A DNA stretch of 64,000 bases from a bacterium (GTDB taxonomy: Bacteria; UBA8248). Below, one piece after another: positions 3,520-42,811 of this stretch (position 1 is the first letter of the stretch; each line of letters begins with the position of its first letter). Below the pieces are notes generated by a model. It saw nothing but the letters and a program-made list of their open reading frames with translations, had not been told where the DNA came from and did no database searches. The position numbers and the translations under genes are program-made. The stretch is taken from positions 4,256,001 to 4,320,000 of the forward strand of contig OZ242260.1 of assembly GCA_965207065.1 (NCBI GenBank). The letters are read 5' to 3'.

Positions 3520-4551
3520 ATGAAACTCGATGACTTCGACTACCACCTGCCCCGAAACCTCATCGCCCGATATCCGCCGCCGAACCGGGAAGACGCGAGG
3601 ATGCTCCATCTCTCAAGAGAGGGTGATGCGCTCGCGCACCTTCAGGTCATCGACCTGCCGCGTTACTTAAGTCCGGGGGATCTGGTCGTCATCAACGACA
3701 CGAAGGTCAACCCGTGGCGGATTCACGGCAGGCGCAAGAGCGGGGGCCGGGTGGAGATCCTGCTGCTCAAACAGCTCTCCCCCGGAAAATTCCGCGCCAT
3801 GGCGCACGCCAACCGCCCCCTGCCCGAAGGGGAAGAAATCGTTTTCGACGATGCGCACCGCGCCACGCTCGGGCCCCAAGGTCTGGAAAGGGAACTCGAA
3901 TTCGCGTCGCCTGATGGTCTCGCCGAATGGCTGGAATCTTTCGGGGAGATGCCGATACCGCCCTATCTGGAGCGGTGCGCCGAGGAGATCGACAAGGAGC
4001 GCTACCAGACCGTGTTCGCCCGAAACCCGGGCGCCGTCGCCGCGCCCACGGCGGGGCTGCACCTGAGCGAAACGATGCTCGAAGACATATCGGCCGCCGG
4101 CGCGCGCATCGCCAGGCTGACCCTCCACGTGGGAGCCGGGACGTTCCGGCCCGTTCAGACGGAAAACGTCGAAGAACACAAAATGGACGCGGAAAGCTAT
4201 ATTCTTAATGATGAGGCCGTCGCCACCATCCACGATACCAGAGCGGGCGGCGGGCGCATTCTGGCCGTGGGCACGACGGTGGTCCGGGCGCTGGAGGCCG
4301 CATACATCGAGGCGGCGGCCCGTGGCCGGACGCTGCAGGCGGGAGAGTTCAGCACCCGCCTGTTCATCCGGCCGGGTTTTCGGTTTCAAGCCGTGGATAT
4401 GATGCTGACGAATTTTCACCTGCCGCGCTCGACCCTGCTCATGCTCGTGTCGGCGTTCGCGGGCAGGGAGAAAATCCTGAGCGCATACGCGCAGGCGATT
4501 GAAGCGGGATACCGATTCTACAGCTACGGGGACGCCATGCTGATAGACTAG
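3520..4551 (+). CDS. queA: S-adenosylmethionine:tRNA ribosyltransferase-isomerase
   Basis: DFDYHLP, AAPTAGLH, TNFHLPRSTL, YRFYSYGDAML. Confidence 0.97.
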   Translation: MKLDDFDYHLPRNLIARYPPPNREDARMLHLSREGDALAHLQVIDLPRYLSPGDLVVINDTKVNPWRIHGRRKSGGRVEILLLKQLSPGKFRAMAHANRPLPEGEEIVFDDAHRATLGPQGLERELEFASPDGLAEWLESFGEMPIPPYLERCAEEIDKERYQTVFARNPGAVAAPTAGLHLSETMLEDISAAGARIARLTLHVGAGTFRPVQTENVEEHKMDAESYILNDEAVATIHDTRAGGGRILAVGTTVVRALEAAYIEAAARGRTLQAGEFSTRLFIRPGFRFQAVDMMLTNFHLPRSTLLMLVSAFAGREKILSAYAQAIEAGYRFYSYGDAMLID

Positions 4552-4572: not shown

Positions 4573-4866
4573 TCAGTGAAATTTCACCTCGGCGCCGTTC
4601 ACCGCATCCTTGAAGTGCTTGCCCGCCTTGAAGCGCACGACGCGGCGCGCGCTGATGGGCGCTTCCTGACCCGTCTTGGGGTTGCGCCCCACGCGGGCGT
4701 TCTTTTCTCTCACCTGAAATGAACCGAAGCGCCTCAGAATGACGGAATCACCACTTTGGAGGGATTCCTTGATGGTGTGGATAATCGTCTCGACTGCTTC
4801 TTCCGCTTTTACTTTACTGAGACCCGTATCGTCCGATACGAGGTTGATGATGTCGATTTTCGTCAA
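4573..4866 (-). CDS. HU/IHF-family DNA-binding protein
   Basis: TTG start after AAGGGGGGAG; TKIDII...FGSF..R...GRNPKTG...VVRFKAG. Confidence 0.93.
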   Translation of the reverse strand: MTKIDIINLVSDDTGLSKVKAEEAVETIIHTIKESLQSGDSVILRRFGSFQVREKNARVGRNPKTGQEAPISARRVVRFKAGKHFKDAVNGAEVKFH

Positions 4867-25970: not shown

Positions 25971-26057
25971 TGGTGCCGGAGAGAGGACTTGAACCTCCAC
26001 GGGCCGAAGCCCACTAGAACCTGAATCTAGCGCGTCTACCAGTTCCGCCACTCCGGC
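25971..26057 (-). tRNA. tRNA-Leu (anticodon CAG)
   Basis: GCCGGAG acceptor stem, D-loop GGAACTGGTAGAC, anticodon arm CTAGA-TTCAGGT-TCTAG, long variable arm, GGTTCAAGTCC, encoded CCA. Confidence 0.97.
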
Positions 26058-38628: not shown

Positions 38629-38816
38629 ATCGAGGGAAACCGGCGACAAGATGCGGTTTCGTTCATCATTCCGGCGTCGGACCCGATCTGGGAGGGAGGA
38701 TTTATCACTCCCCCTTGATGGGGGAAGTATTTCATTTCTCCTTGGGGTTATTTTTGGGAATTATAAACTTAACTATGCAAATTGCTTTTAAAAAATAAAA
38801 GGATTTGCTTTCATGA

Positions 38817-39719
38817 CTAGGCTATCACCTTCGCATCACTTATGTGCAATCGTTTCACGATGCCTTTTTGTATTTCGACCTTTGCTACGACAATAAATTC
38901 AGAATGATCGTTCAGTGCTTGTGAATATATATTTTGGCGTATACCTATCGCCGGGTCTGTTATTCGACCAGTTATATGTTCACCAAAAAATTCAACATCA
39001 ACAACACAATGCCCTGTGTCGAGATTGAGTTCCCTGATCCTTACGACCCGGTATTCAGTCGCGTCTCCTACTTCTATTTCCCCTTCATCGCGTATAGCTT
39101 TTGCGTCTGATTCTGTGATTTCCGATTTTGATTCAGACTCAGAAAATTGTTCGATGGCGGAACAAGATGAACCGATGGGTTTCACAAACTCACGGGCATA
39201 AGGTCTTGTGCTTTCAGCGAGCAGTGGTATCTGTTCAGTTAATTTTTCCATTAGTGCCGCTAGATTGTCATTCGCTTTTTGGTTCGCGGCCACAAGAACT
39301 TCCATGACTTTCGCATCTTGCTCCGCTTTTTCACGAATCACATCTACAAGTTCTTTCACTATGGCCTCCTGTTCACTTGGATGAGTCCATAATTTCAATA
39401 ATGCCTCAACTATTTTACGAAATATCCAACTTAATGGTTCCTTGAACATATAAAATACAACGCCAAATTCTCCGGCCTGAGCAGGTTCAATCCCAAATTC
39501 TTGTCCGAAAGACCCCTTTTTAGGAACTTTTGACACGCAGATAAATTTGTTTTTTGCATTTGGTTTAGGAATTTCGCCGTAGTAAATATATTCGGCGATG
39601 GTGATATATAATTTCGAAGCACCGATGAGAGATTCACCATATTCTTTCGAGTCAAGAAAATGGTGATCCGCGCTCTTGCCGATATAACGAACCATGAATG
39701 GAGAAACAACTTCCACCAT
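38817..39719 (-). CDS. Hypothetical passenger protein (300 aa)
   Basis: Long ORF in AT-rich DNA with a central helical segment; no motif recognised. Confidence 0.75.
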   Translation of the reverse strand: MVEVVSPFMVRYIGKSADHHFLDSKEYGESLIGASKLYITIAEYIYYGEIPKPNAKNKFICVSKVPKKGSFGQEFGIEPAQAGEFGVVFYMFKEPLSWIFRKIVEALLKLWTHPSEQEAIVKELVDVIREKAEQDAKVMEVLVAANQKANDNLAALMEKLTEQIPLLAESTRPYAREFVKPIGSSCSAIEQFSESESKSEITESDAKAIRDEGEIEVGDATEYRVVRIRELNLDTGHCVVDVEFFGEHITGRITDPAIGIRQNIYSQALNDHSEFIVVAKVEIQKGIVKRLHISDAKVIA

Positions 39720-39852: not shown

Positions 39853-40131
39853 TCATCTACACAGTTCTCTCATTTCTTTCCTTGAAGAAAATGGTTCAAA
39901 TTCTTTATCAAAGTGCTTCGTAATGGCTCCATGTATTTTCTTTAATGAATGTTCCATATGAACATCGATGAGACTAATTTCATCTTTGATCTCAATTTCC
40001 ACTTTATCGATTTTGGATTCAAGTCTATCAAATCTTTTATCCATTTCATCCAGTTTTCGTAGAATCGCGTTCATATCTCTTTTAAGTTTCCTTATTTGTT
40101 CTTCCAGAGTCTTATTTCTATTTATACTCAT
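39853..40131 (-). CDS. Small coiled-coil passenger protein (92 aa)
   Basis: AGGAG RBS; heptad pattern LDEMDKRFDRLESKIDKVE. Confidence 0.7.
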   Translation of the reverse strand: MSINRNKTLEEQIRKLKRDMNAILRKLDEMDKRFDRLESKIDKVEIEIKDEISLIDVHMEHSLKKIHGAITKHFDKEFEPFSSRKEMRELCR

Positions 40132-40275: not shown

Positions 40276-41220
40276 ATGGCACACAAAGCACCCGGCAAAG
40301 CATTTAGAGAAGGCATTTCACTAATCGACCTTTTCAAGATGTTCCCCGATGAGGAAACTGCCACCACATGGTTTGAAGGCTTGAAGTGGGGTAAAGACCT
40401 GGAATATCTTTGTTGCCCTAGATGTGGTTGCATGGATAAGGTTAGGCCTGTTCCTTCCAAAAAACCCATGCCTTACTGGTGCGGCGATTGCCGACGCAAT
40501 TTCAGCGTAAGAACTGGAACAGTCATGGAGAAGTCAAGGATTCCCCTTCAAAAATGGGCAATCGCCATGTACTTGAATGTAACCAGTCTCAAGGGCGTTT
40601 CTTCAATGAAACTTCATCGAGACCTTGATATTTCCCAAAGGTCTGCTTGGTTCATGGGGCATAGAATCAGGGAAGCCATGAATAATGAAGGTGGAATGTT
40701 TGATGGCCCCGTAGAAATCGATGAAACTTATGTAGGTGGCTTGGAGAGAAATAAACACGGAAAGAAGAAACTCAAGGCAGGACGCGGCGCAGTAGGCAAA
40801 GCCGCCGTAGTGGGTATCAAGGAACGGAAATCAAACAAGGTTAAAGCTAAGGTAGTGGAAGATACCAAGAAAGAAACCCTGCAAGATTTCGTTAATGAGA
40901 ATGTGGTTGCAGAAGCCAAGAAATATACTGATGAAAATCGTTCATACAGGGGATTGAGCAATCACAAATCCGTCAATCACAGCATGGGCAAGTGGGTAGA
41001 CGAGATGGCCCATACAAACGGCATCGAATCCTTCTGGTCTATGTTCAAGCGGGGGTTTCATGGAACCTATCACAAGATGAGTCATAAGCATCTTCACCGC
41101 TATATCATTGAATTTAGTGAGAGACATAATCTCCGGCCAATGGATACTATTTCCCAAATGAAAACTCTTGCAGGTAACATGGACGGCAAGAGACTAACCT
41201 ACGAAGATTTGATTGCTTAG
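40276..41220 (+). CDS. IS1595-family (ISXO2-like) DDE transposase
   Basis: Zn ribbon CPRC...CGDC, VEIDETYVGG, YTDE, HTNGIESFWS, RLTYEDLI; uninterrupted. Confidence 0.95.
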   Translation: MAHKAPGKAFREGISLIDLFKMFPDEETATTWFEGLKWGKDLEYLCCPRCGCMDKVRPVPSKKPMPYWCGDCRRNFSVRTGTVMEKSRIPLQKWAIAMYLNVTSLKGVSSMKLHRDLDISQRSAWFMGHRIREAMNNEGGMFDGPVEIDETYVGGLERNKHGKKKLKAGRGAVGKAAVVGIKERKSNKVKAKVVEDTKKETLQDFVNENVVAEAKKYTDENRSYRGLSNHKSVNHSMGKWVDEMAHTNGIESFWSMFKRGFHGTYHKMSHKHLHRYIIEFSERHNLRPMDTISQMKTLAGNMDGKRLTYEDLIA

Positions 41221-41222
41221 AT

Positions 41223-41357
41223 ATGTCGAAAACAGAAAACGATAAGAAGAAAGAAGAACAGAAGAAGGCACGGGATTCTATCCCGTCGCATATCCATGAA
41301 GATGTGGAAGAAATAGCAAAAAAGATTCTTGGTGTTCCTGAAAGGAAGAAAAAGTAG
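41223..41357 (+). CDS. Small charged protein (44 aa) directly after transposase
   Basis: MSKTENDKKKEEQKKARDSIPSHIHEDVEEIAKKILGVPERKKK; ATG 2 nt after transposase stop. Confidence 0.55.
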   Translation: MSKTENDKKKEEQKKARDSIPSHIHEDVEEIAKKILGVPERKKK

Positions 41358-41418
41358 GAATCTCCCCGTTTAATTTCATCTTGACTTTAGCATTCGACCT
41401 CACATAGCATTGATTCCA

Positions 41419-41580
41419 GCCATTACCATAGAGTTTCCCGTCTACCAAGTCGGGTCACTCGCTAAATACAACAGCCTTGTAACCCGGCGCGGGGTAGCTC
41501 CCCATGCTAAAGGTGAATAGGCGAGATTACCCCAAGCATCTCTATGGTAATGGCATGACCCGGCCTTATGGGAAGGTCGG
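41419..41580 (+). ncRNA. Candidate structured RNA (three-way junction plus 3' hairpin) inside the IS1595 element
   Basis: Perfect 15-bp closing stem 41419-33/41540-54, two internal hairpins, 3' hairpin 41560-80; upstream TTGACT-18-TAGCAT. Confidence 0.6.
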
Positions 41581-41614
41581 AATTATGTTCATTCGCTGTA
41601 GAGAAACCAAAACA

Positions 41615-41848
41615 ATGAATTTAGATTCCATAATTTATTGGTTGGCCGCCAAAGATTGTCAAATTTTAGAATTTGTTGGCTTAAACAAAATTGCAACAGA
41701 TTTAGGTTGTTATCCTCTTTTCCAGTCTCGATTAGCGGCAGAATTGGACTTGTATTACTGGATGGGCGCATTGACTGGATTTGGATTAATCAGTGTTGTC
41801 TTGAGTATTTTAAGTTCCATACTCGGATTTTCAAAGAAAAAGGAATGA
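41615..41848 (+). CDS. Small membrane passenger protein
   Basis: C-terminal hydrophobic helix followed by KKKE; start uncertain (in-frame ATGs also at 41504/41555/41585). Confidence 0.55.
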   Translation: MNLDSIIYWLAAKDCQILEFVGLNKIATDLGCYPLFQSRLAAELDLYYWMGALTGFGLISVVLSILSSILGFSKKKE

Positions 41849-41852
41849 ATAA

Positions 41853-42398
41853 ATGAGAAAAACAATTTTGTTCCTGATGTTCGTATCTATTGTGATGTTC
41901 TCAAGTACAAGGGTTTTATCCACCGAAAAATCTGATTCTTTCCGACAGTTCATAAATTATTTCACCACAGGAAATCCATTTAAATCTAGTGGAGGTATTG
42001 CGACAGCAAAAATCTTCAATCGAAAAAATTGTGTGGCTGGCTTTGAAGATAATAAGGGAGGCTATCTGAAAATTTATTGGAATAACATTGATGTAAATTC
42101 TATTAAAATTCAAAATAAATTTCGAAAGCCTAATCGCTTTCTATTCGGAAGTGGTGATTCTGGAGAATGGCAGAAATATATTTCGTTTTCTGGACAACCA
42201 TATGTTGCAGATGTCGATGTTAAGAATTTTCTTTTAGCAATGAATTATGCCGCTAATGGTATTCCTAACGGACAACATTCTGCTGTATCCATACCTCTTG
42301 GCGCGCCGGATGGGATAGACGATGAACGGTTGATCAAGGCACTTAGATTACTTTATTCCAAACATTGTACTGGCTCAAAAAGAAAATCTGAATTTTGA
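41853..42398 (+). CDS. Secreted hypothetical passenger protein (181 aa)
   Basis: Signal peptide MRKTILFLMFVSIVMFSS; two Cys; AAGGA RBS. Confidence 0.75.
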   Translation: MRKTILFLMFVSIVMFSSTRVLSTEKSDSFRQFINYFTTGNPFKSSGGIATAKIFNRKNCVAGFEDNKGGYLKIYWNNIDVNSIKIQNKFRKPNRFLFGSGDSGEWQKYISFSGQPYVADVDVKNFLLAMNYAANGIPNGQHSAVSIPLGAPDGIDDERLIKALRLLYSKHCTGSKRKSEF

Positions 42399-42430: not shown

Positions 42431-42667
42431 ATGCAGAAGGTGAATTTCCCCTCATTCGACGATCATACAATTGACGCTCAATTTCCCGGCATTCTTCGGG
42501 TGTCAAATCTGGAGGTTCTCCAGACCAAGAACCGAGAAACTCTAGTTCTACAGATGGTCGTGAAACCCGATCCGGAAAATGAACAACATTCGACTCCGTA
42601 TGCTTTTTCTCGTGATGCTGTGGTTTATCTGGCGGAGCAAGTGAATTCTTTTTTAGCCTCTCAGTGA
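42431..42667 (+). CDS. Hypothetical passenger protein (78 aa)
   Basis: AAGGA RBS, co-oriented with upstream passengers. Confidence 0.55.
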   Translation: MQKVNFPSFDDHTIDAQFPGILRVSNLEVLQTKNRETLVLQMVVKPDPENEQHSTPYAFSRDAVVYLAEQVNSFLASQ

Positions 42668-42811
42668 TATCTATTATATCCATTTAAGCCTCCTTTCTAG
42701 TATTTATACAAGGAAGGAGTGCGTTAGATTTCTGCATAGTTAAGTTTATAATTCCCTTATTTTTTAACCCAAAGTAGCAGAGCTACGCACGACAGATCGC
42801 TATAGAATGCC

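Follow-up and report, generated by a model that had tools for sequence, protein, structure and literature searches.

A candidate riboswitch-like leader RNA inside an IS1595-family transposon

What does a structured RNA with its own promoter do inside an insertion-sequence-type element? The question is raised by positions 41419-41580 of the window, i.e. of the whole 64,000-nucleotide stretch analysed here (contig OZ242260.1 of the bacterial assembly GCA_965207065.1, positions 4,256,001 to 4,320,000, forward strand), where such an RNA is predicted between the transposase gene and passenger genes of an IS1595-family transposon. The original prediction had offered several roles, namely a regulatory RNA (attenuator, antisense or antitoxin) for the passenger genes or an RNA that binds the transposase. 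Based on a comparison with relatives, we consider it probable that 41419-41580 is the 5' leader of the passenger-gene messenger RNA (mRNA), a cis-acting, riboswitch-like leader that would set translation in response to some signal. The copy in the window appears to be one member of a family of conserved leaders, which are ~135-150 nucleotides (nt) long.

Fold of the window copy and of its relatives

The predicted elements of the window copy, all of them on the + strand, are listed below; L-numbers designate fetched loci.

41381-41410, +, promoter with -35 box TTGACT (41381-86), 18-nt spacer and -10 box TAGCAT (41405-10), conserved in L003 and L051
41419-41433, +, P1, 5' strand, 15 nt; the RNA probably starts here
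41434-41448, +, linker TTTCCCGTCTACCAA (CCCGCTNT in most copies; alignment A2); no covarying partner found
41449-41457, +, helix A, 5' strand GTCGGGTCA, forming a pseudoknot with 41556-64
41458-41463, +, helix B, 5' strand CTCGCT, pairing with 41520-25
41464-41473, +, conserved unpaired strand AAATACAACA (family GAATA[C/G]AACA), invariant columns in alignments A2 and A5
41474-41476, +, helix C, 5' strand GCC, partner GGT at 41512-14
41491-41503, +, hairpin D, GGGG-TAGCT-CCCC
41515-41519, +, unpaired GAATA facing 41464-73, conserved in invariant or nearly invariant columns
41520-41525, +, helix B, 3' strand GGCGAG, from the covariance model and pair counts
41540-41554, +, P1, 3' strand, perfect complement of 41419-33
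41556-41564, +, helix A, 3' strand TGACCCGGC, common to the 3' hairpin, from pair counts and family folds
41560-41580, +, 3' hairpin CCGGCC / GGTCGG (41560-65 / 41575-80), which excludes helix A; a hairpin is found here family-wide
41570-41576, +, likely ribosome-binding site GGGAAGG, partly within the 3' hairpin and 8 nt 5' of ATG 41585

The promoter TTGACT-18-TAGCAT of the original prediction is present and reads as a sigma-70-type promoter; its TAGCAT ends 8 nt 5' of P1. The arms of P1, which had been proposed as a perfect stem, are indeed 100% complementary over 15 base pairs (bp) and are separated by 106 nt. Folding of the + strand of 41411-41595 gave -71 kcal/mol (z -4.6), and 0 of 200 shuffles were as good; the - strand folds better still (z -5.6), and consequently energy alone cannot assign the strand. 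The types of pairs are more informative: among 92 distinct sequences, 329 cells are G-U and 51 are A-C, which indicates that the given (+) strand is the folded one and agrees with the earlier remark that G-U pairs favour it. Both in the window and in L051, an ATG at 41555 (the 'AAC' spacer position) is in frame with ATG 41585; since other family members have no ATG there, it is treated as a probable chance occurrence.

Relatives were collected with the transposase, with the RNA region and with a core pattern. By means of the window transposase, 24 loci were obtained from a species-level genome collection; in transposase-fetched loci, the copies lie on either strand and upstream or downstream of the transposase. 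An nhmmer search with 41360-41620 detected the RNA in L003 (E 4.7e-32), its core in L016, and borderline matches in L013 and L021 (E ~0.015), which were later confirmed by a covariance model. In the first relatives, the sequence of the outer stem differs yet stays paired, and the pairing of 41449-57 with 41556-64 is kept. A degenerate 26-nt core pattern matched at least 120 metagenome stretches. A scan of viral contigs with this pattern gave 0 matches, and a blastn search of 41360-41620 against plasmids and phages gave none; as there are 0 matches in viral contigs or phage records, the family is apparently not phage-borne.

Because MAFFT alone misaligned P1, the covariance model R1 (140 positions, 23 pairs) was seeded with 11 sequences whose outer stems are in the same register. 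The misalignment is also the reason why RNAalifold, applied to the first 5-sequence alignment, had favoured helix A over P1, a result that was discarded. At E <= 0.001, R1 gave 95 matches in 89 of the 97 sources, which are the window plus the 96 loci left after removing those with exact-duplicate copies; the 8 sources without a match contain the pattern only, or a truncated copy. The 21 loci outside this main search (20 transposase-fetched ones and L147) contributed three weaker matches, in L020, L012 and L147.

Some loci have more than one copy. In L013, two same-strand copies (4272-4411 and 4619-4778), 208 nt apart, lie ahead of one open reading frame (ORF), which may be a tandem arrangement as known for some riboswitches. 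A pair of copies, every one with its own gene, is present in each of L112, L125 and L090, and the second copy of L096 is encoded by the other strand. In L088 the 3' segment recurs as an inverted repeat of 30 nt, at best a putative copy.

The pair statistics refer to 92 distinct rows of alignment A8, to which the pseudoknot (helix A) was added by hand. Standard pairs make up 95.8% of the 2,845 cells, compared with 79.6% for shuffles and 30-46% (at most 46.2%) if the partners are slid by 1-3 columns. Double-sided changes were found for 22 of the 32 pairs, and 0 of 500 shuffles matched any of the five measures. The changes occur in all 10 outer pairs of P1 that were modelled (96.8% of cells paired), in five of the six pairs of helix B (96.3%), in two of the three pairs of helix C (97.8%) and in three of the four pairs of hairpin D (88.2%). 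Helix A, which is outside the model and hence was not fitted, has 96.9% of its cells paired, with two double-sided and five one-sided changes; the combination C-A was never seen in 90 copies. For P1, strands of the same copy gave a mean duplex energy of -31.4 kcal/mol and strands of different copies one of -16.7 kcal/mol (73 copies, 360 controls). Its median length is 19 bp (14-29 bp in the family), and there are 66 distinct first-10-nt strands among the 73 copies.

In the fold that emerges, helices B and C and hairpin D lie inside P1 and hold the two conserved unpaired strands GAAUAcAACA and GAAUA, and the 5' segment GUCGGGUC(A/G) pairs with (U/C)GRCCCGRC just 3' of P1 to form helix A as a pseudoknot. 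Thus covariation, for which a test in related elements had been suggested, was found for the outer stem, and the proposed alternative helix was found as well; the interior had to be redrawn. With respect to hairpin P2 (41449-58 / 41479-88), the duplex of the CCCGGC box reaches -10 kcal/mol or lower in 46 of 89 copies and is weaker than -6 kcal/mol in 22 of 89, and P2 is not retained as a family helix. In place of P3 (41491-500 / 41523-33), the family has helix B, helix C and hairpin D. GCTAAA had been noticed in both loops; the second occurrence (41506-11) is not conserved in alignment A2. The loop of hairpin D (window 41495-41499, family column GUAGCUC) contains a self-complementary AGCU, which could mediate a loop-loop contact between two copies or a tertiary contact. 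Hairpin D itself is swapped for another single hairpin in a short variant of this genus.

Position of the RNA and competing 3' pairings

A TAnnnT box ends 7-8 nt 5' of P1 in 42 of 91 copies (other offsets: ~0-5 copies; background: about 1 per offset), and TTG is at the matching -35 place in 48 of 91. The promoter placement seen in the window thus recurs across the family, and the fixed offset of both boxes indicates that the RNA would start at P1. On the other side, a start codon follows 20-59 nt past helix A in 64 of the 70 copies with a called ribosome-binding site and start.

A purely coding role of the region, as part of the ORF 41504-41848, had been named as one of the findings that would overturn the RNA interpretation. 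It was ruled out: neither ATG 41504 nor its frame is conserved, and the genes that follow this RNA are unrelated to one another. Equally, the hairpin plus U run of a terminator-type transcription attenuator is apparently not what the copies possess, as an intrinsic terminator, sought as a T run of 4 or more 10-60 nt downstream, was found in just 6 of 90 copies. Of the roles originally predicted, an attenuator-like control of the passenger genes is retained, since the RNA lies directly upstream of these genes for membrane and secreted proteins.

The downstream products, 60-880 amino acids (aa) in size, are mostly exported proteins. According to a crude script, a hydrophobic N-terminal segment is present in 51 of 76 distinct products and a lipobox-like motif in 22. 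A Pfam search with 73 products assigned a family to at most 21: Peptidase_M10 (5), TbpB_B_D (4), Glyco_transf_25 (3), Rhodanese (2), SNase (2) and five others once each.

The feature that most suggests a switch is located at the 3' end, where the original prediction had the long helix GTCGGGTCA 41449-57 / TGACCCGGC 41556-64 compete with a 3' hairpin. Both pairings are present and both are conserved in the family: instead of closing helix A, its 3' strand can pair with the 10-20 nt that follow and so make up the 5' side of a hairpin. Such a hairpin was seen in most of the folds of 25 copies examined, and its mean duplex energy is -13.2 kcal/mol versus -10.3 kcal/mol for shuffles. Moreover, the partner strand follows changes in helix A. 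If the helix A 3' strand ends with GAC instead of GGC, the hairpin partner tends to be GTCGG instead of GCCGG (7/2 versus 8/30, Fisher p 0.0025, a value that is affected by the relatedness of the copies). A covarying hairpin partner in combination with a conserved helix A argues that both pairings, which are mutually exclusive, are conserved. The 3' hairpin of the window copy takes in part of GGGAAGG (41570-76), and consequently the pseudoknot state should free the ribosome-binding site; in most GC-rich copies the site is just past the hairpin (3-30 nt beyond in most copies).

We propose that the pseudoknot would be fixed by a signal, for which the most likely candidate is a small molecule that the RNA itself senses in the manner of a riboswitch. 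This would shift the balance of the two 3' pairings and set the translation of the downstream gene; in the window copy, the pseudoknot state would turn translation on by freeing GGGAAGG from the 3' hairpin. Leader and gene would then constitute a self-contained cargo module, which IS1595-family transposons move between hosts. Of the generic features of riboswitches, the family displays a covarying fold with conserved unpaired nucleotides, a 5' untranslated position on the same strand directly before an ORF and, at the level of the sequence, an expression platform in the form of a strand shared by two exclusive pairings.

Several observations weigh against a riboswitch-like translational leader. 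We infer the transcript, its ends and the switching from sequence. Among the sequencing runs listed for the stretch, none was an RNA run; two runs of one sample contain all of it, and the others contain small shares. The pair counts are inflated for two reasons, the fitting of alignment A8 to R1 in P1, B, C and D and the relatedness of many copies. The ORF calls in GC-rich DNA stem from a simple script, and some will be wrong. The set of downstream genes gives no clear hint of a ligand. P1, with its median of 19 bp, is far longer than is usual for the closing stems of riboswitches and would be hard to open, so that any switch must act via helix A alone. Finally, the predicted complementarity of TTCCCGT and ATGGGAA is real in the window copy, but across the family the linker has no copy-specific match to the ribosome-binding region (-9.18 versus -9.10 kcal/mol; 718 of 2,000 permutations as good). 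The segment following helix A does give a copy-specific signal with this region (1 of 2,000 permutations as good); an overlap of the two segments in short leaders may have inflated it.

The carrier transposon and the distribution of the RNA

Between 38.7 and 42.7 kb, the GC content of the window is ~0.28-0.50, compared with 0.55-0.71 outside. This AT-rich island is a single IS1595-family transposon, a unit of 4,001 bp with the following features.

38748-38755, no strand, left target-site duplication, 8 bp, TTATTTTT; identical bases at 42757-42764, directly outside the inverted repeats
38756-38779, no strand, left terminal inverted repeat (GGGAATTATAAAC...), 24 nt, 100% complementary to 42733-42756
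38817-39719, -, passenger gene for a DUF7946 + DUF7947 protein, 300 aa (Pfam PF25678 1.2e-18, PF25679 7.8e-14)
39853-40131, -, passenger gene for a 92-aa coiled-coil protein (an ORF with weak coiled-coil matches only; homologues in L051 and L117)
40276-41220, +, IS1595-family DDE transposase, 314 aa (PF12762 2.7e-38; NF033547 185.6 bits, cut-off 75)
41223-41357, +, 44-aa Lys/Glu-rich ORF 3' of the transposase (77% identical copy, in L002 only)
41585-41848, +, first ORF downstream of the RNA, 87 aa, with a C-terminal hydrophobic segment; the start codon was chosen by us
41853-42398, +, 181-aa protein whose N-terminus resembles a signal peptide (in L051, a homologue of 37% identity directly follows the RNA)
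42431-42667, +, 78-aa ORF without a family (ORF list, Pfam scan)
42733-42756, no strand, right terminal inverted repeat, 24 nt, perfect complement of the left one
42757-42764, no strand, right target-site duplication TTATTTTT, matching the left copy

A duplication of 8 bp is the norm of the IS1595 family (ISfinder). With a DDE transposase, terminal inverted repeats and this duplication, all features of membership are present, and the predicted location of the RNA inside such an element is correct. The notion that GGAATTAT (41579-86) is a relic of the inverted repeat was dropped: the window contains 3 matches versus 1.36 expected, and 19 of 100 shuffles reach 3. Passenger genes are present on both sides of the transposase. 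Searches of the passenger proteins with PADLOC and NCBIfam matched the transposase only; the 87-aa protein has no family in Pfam, NCBIfam or PADLOC, and for the 300-aa protein there is neither a PADLOC nor an NCBIfam match, nor a homologue in any of the fetched loci.

How closely is the RNA tied to such elements? Among the matches listed, a homologue of the transposase is encoded in 28 of the 120 loci that were obtained with nothing but the RNA pattern. For 17 of 91 independent copies, an IS1595 transposase is on the same locus; the other 74, from metagenomes, are without one, many of the loci being short. Downstream flanks of at least 4 kb are available for 25 copies, and in 8 of these a transposase follows, mostly convergent after one cargo gene. 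In four copies the transposase is directly upstream, as it is in the window, and three of these have it on the same strand. Only 4 genes of the window transposase family occur in the 4.48 Mb of this genome, which implies a large enrichment beside the RNA, the comparison being rough. As in the window, the RNA, the cargo and the transposase are bracketed by inverted repeats of the GGGAATTA type in L003, L044 and L090. The RNA lies ~87 to ~620 nt from an element end, or mid-element, and relative to the RNA the transposase may be convergent downstream, co-directional upstream, or placed otherwise. Since 74 of 91 copies have no transposase on the locus and three other copies in this genome do not adjoin one, the RNA is, as far as these loci tell, not specific to IS1595. 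We conclude that 'leader plus gene' is typical cargo of this transposon clade and not part of its machinery.

Related elements differ in their make-up. The promoter-to-3'-hairpin module (window 41359-41580) is ~93% identical to L051:2487-2700 (- strand), with all 15 P1 pairs identical and flanks that cannot be aligned; the transposases of the two elements are 70% and the 181-aa cargo proteins 37% identical. The RNA module would thus be either far more constrained than its neighbours or exchanged more recently. In L003 (5735-5756 and 2891-2912), a truncated start of the coiled-coil gene stands beside the RNA promoter and the intact gene beside the transposase, whereas the intact gene of L051 points away from the RNA in a divergent arrangement; this differing placement indicates that modules were rearranged within the element family. 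The closest relative, L002 (transposase 88% identical, same 44-aa ORF), is without the RNA. At the same place after the small ORF, L002:4103-4222 is another GC-rich segment, closed by a ~16-bp stem (fold z -2.5, no Rfam match).

The genome searches are samples of their groups and not censuses. This genome contains 4 copies: the transposon-borne one (99.5 bits), whose 220-nt RNA stretch occurs only once in the genome at the DNA level, and three shorter ones of 55.7, 43.9 and 39 bits. The latter (G000:C1:126399-126526, 196763-196877 on the - strand, and 1626206-1626322) are chromosomal and each located behind a good promoter; in this short variant, a single hairpin takes the place of C and D. 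The copy at 126399-126526 precedes a family-25 glycosyltransferase gene and the one at 196763-196877 (-) a gene for a 195-aa protein with a hydrophobic segment. In the same genus, 18 of 22 genomes have a match, with 1-11 matches each. There was no match in 14 genomes from other genera of the family, nor in 15 from other phyla; a second family of the class had matches in 2 of 7 genomes, and the whole sample of the phylum, this genome included, in 20 of 51. The order around an Acidobacteria-labelled genome gave 7 of 61 and the one around a Gammaproteobacteria-labelled genome 1 of 61. By record label, copies were found in genomes of Acidobacteriota (2), Acidobacteria (4) and Gammaproteobacteria (3).

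A search of the whole window against Rfam 15 with cmscan at the gathering threshold reported only a transfer RNA (tRNA; 25974-26057). At E <= 10, positions 41200-41800 gave two chance-level rows of 12.9 and 20.8 bits, far under the cut-offs. Ten typical loci gave tRNAs only at E <= 0.1, and L039:880-1130 gave only noise at E <= 10. The check that could have removed the novelty of the RNA thus returned no Rfam 15 family. A literature search found no account of the family, which could be contained in supplementary motif lists of RNA-discovery papers. The family is widespread and apparently undescribed.

Competing explanations and biological meaning

Several known systems share part of these properties. 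Like the RNA described here, the cyclic di-GMP (c-di-GMP) riboswitches GEMM-I and class II occur as several leader copies per genome, before heterogeneous genes for surface, secreted or envelope proteins, and also on mobile DNA; the class II c-di-GMP riboswitch uses a pseudoknot. There is, however, no match in sequence or structure, and the fold differs: the present family is characterized by a 14-29-bp P1, a B-C-D arm and GAAUA loops. SAM-II and preQ1-II/III riboswitches also capture a 3' segment near the ribosome-binding site in a pseudoknot, have a competing local pairing on which ribosome access depends and need no terminator, but their aptamers are much smaller and the ribosome-binding site is within the pseudoknot, whereas here it is 3-30 nt beyond the hairpin in most copies. 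A stem-enclosed multi-helix RNA on mobile DNA is likewise found in the P1 C4 and P4 CI RNAs; those are processed from longer transcripts and pair in trans with nearby targets, and no target complementarity was found here.

A more specific form of the leader hypothesis is that the family represents a new riboswitch class for a small molecule, be it a second messenger or a signal from habitat or host, which would act as a portable control unit without a host protein. We put this forward tentatively, as possible but doubtful. Unlikely, although the strongest competitor, is the alternative that the RNA is the same cis-acting leader without a small-molecule sensor: it would either be bound by a protein, be it an RNase, a ribosomal protein or a global RNA-binding regulator, or be an mRNA-stabilising 5' structure with a fixed level of translation. 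Stem-loops at the 5' end, such as the ompA leader, protect mRNA 5' ends, and the very long P1 at +1 resembles such a stem; furthermore, the heterogeneous gene set fits a global regulator as well as a second messenger. The conserved unpaired strands and the exclusive 3' pairings, however, exceed the needs of a stabilising stem. Given the phylum-spanning record labels and the travel by transposon, a host-specific protein partner would often be missing after transfer, and the element's one small ORF (44 aa) recurs only in L002.

It is quite improbable that the RNA is a stand-alone, trans-acting small RNA of ~160 nt with its end at the 3' hairpin, to which the genes downstream would merely be adjacent. 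Its own promoter, the stable 3' hairpin and the ~93% identity of module 41359-41580 between the window and L051 next to unalignable flanks are compatible with this idea. Nevertheless, 84 of 90 copies have no T run after the hairpin, 64 of the 70 copies with a call have both a start codon and its ribosome-binding site on the same strand within the next 20-59 nt, and no conserved single-stranded seed with an obvious target was seen. The antisense or antitoxin role of the original prediction is abandoned as well, since no opposite-strand target was seen and the downstream products are mostly exported proteins of up to 880 aa.

A function in transposition, in which the RNA would bind, guide or regulate the IS1595 transposase, is very improbable. 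It was suggested by the enrichment of transposases (17 of 91 copies versus 4 homologues in 4.48 Mb) and by the location of the RNA inside inverted repeats in four elements. Other elements of the insertion-sequence type likewise encode structured RNAs that have their own promoter, namely IS10 RNA-OUT, the RNA of the IS200 5' untranslated region (PMC5435999), the IS110 bridge RNA and the IS200/605 omega RNA. As far as is known, those RNAs act on the transposase mRNA or together with the recombinase and have a fixed place beside it, whereas the RNA family of the window precedes cargo, has no constant location or direction and in most cases is found with no transposase; the transposase here is a DDE enzyme of IS1595 and not of the IS110 or TnpB/IscB type, as in the bridge and omega systems. 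The variable position and orientation relative to transposase and inverted repeats also speak against the transposase-binding role that had been proposed. In addition, many short loci notwithstanding, 74 of 91 copies have no transposase on the locus, the three other copies of this genome are apart from any transposase, and L002, the closest relative element, is without the RNA. The DDE enzymes of the IS1595 family are not known to require RNA, which we count as a further point against such a function.

The chance that the RNA is self-cleaving or otherwise catalytic is just as slight: a pseudoknotted fold, invariant unpaired nucleotides, sequence-variable stems and up to 11 copies per genome would be in line with it, but no ribozyme family of Rfam 15 was matched, and the constant place between promoter and ribosome-binding site as well as the competing 3' hairpin fit regulation better. 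Least probable of all is a DNA-level site, e.g. a recombination or capture site for cargo cassettes that is read as single-stranded DNA, for although one motif borders many unrelated cargo genes on their 5' side and is present on mobile elements, and the module borders between window and L051 are sharp, the promoter is placed to start at P1 with a ribosome-binding site after it, no recurring recombinase is nearby beyond the DDE transposase, and the P1 sequences differ between copies (66 distinct in 73), unlike sequence-recognised sites.

If the family does represent a new portable riboswitch class, IS1595-family transposons would spread ready-regulated genes for surface and secreted proteins across bacterial phyla, and they would be the first transposon family in which a common regulatory RNA defines the typical cargo. 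If the reading as a riboswitch-like translational leader holds, the RNA would be a well-supported orphan riboswitch-like class with a pseudoknot and a competing hairpin, whose more than 100 natural variants would be enough for ligand screening. Its regulon would consist of mostly uncharacterised exported proteins, among them matrixin-like proteases, TbpB-like lipoproteins and family-25 glycosyltransferases, all under one common signal. RNA-based gene control would then be linked to horizontal transfer, with leader and promoter carried inside IS1595-family transposons, and this would provide a testable explanation of how transposon cargo stays regulated in a new host.

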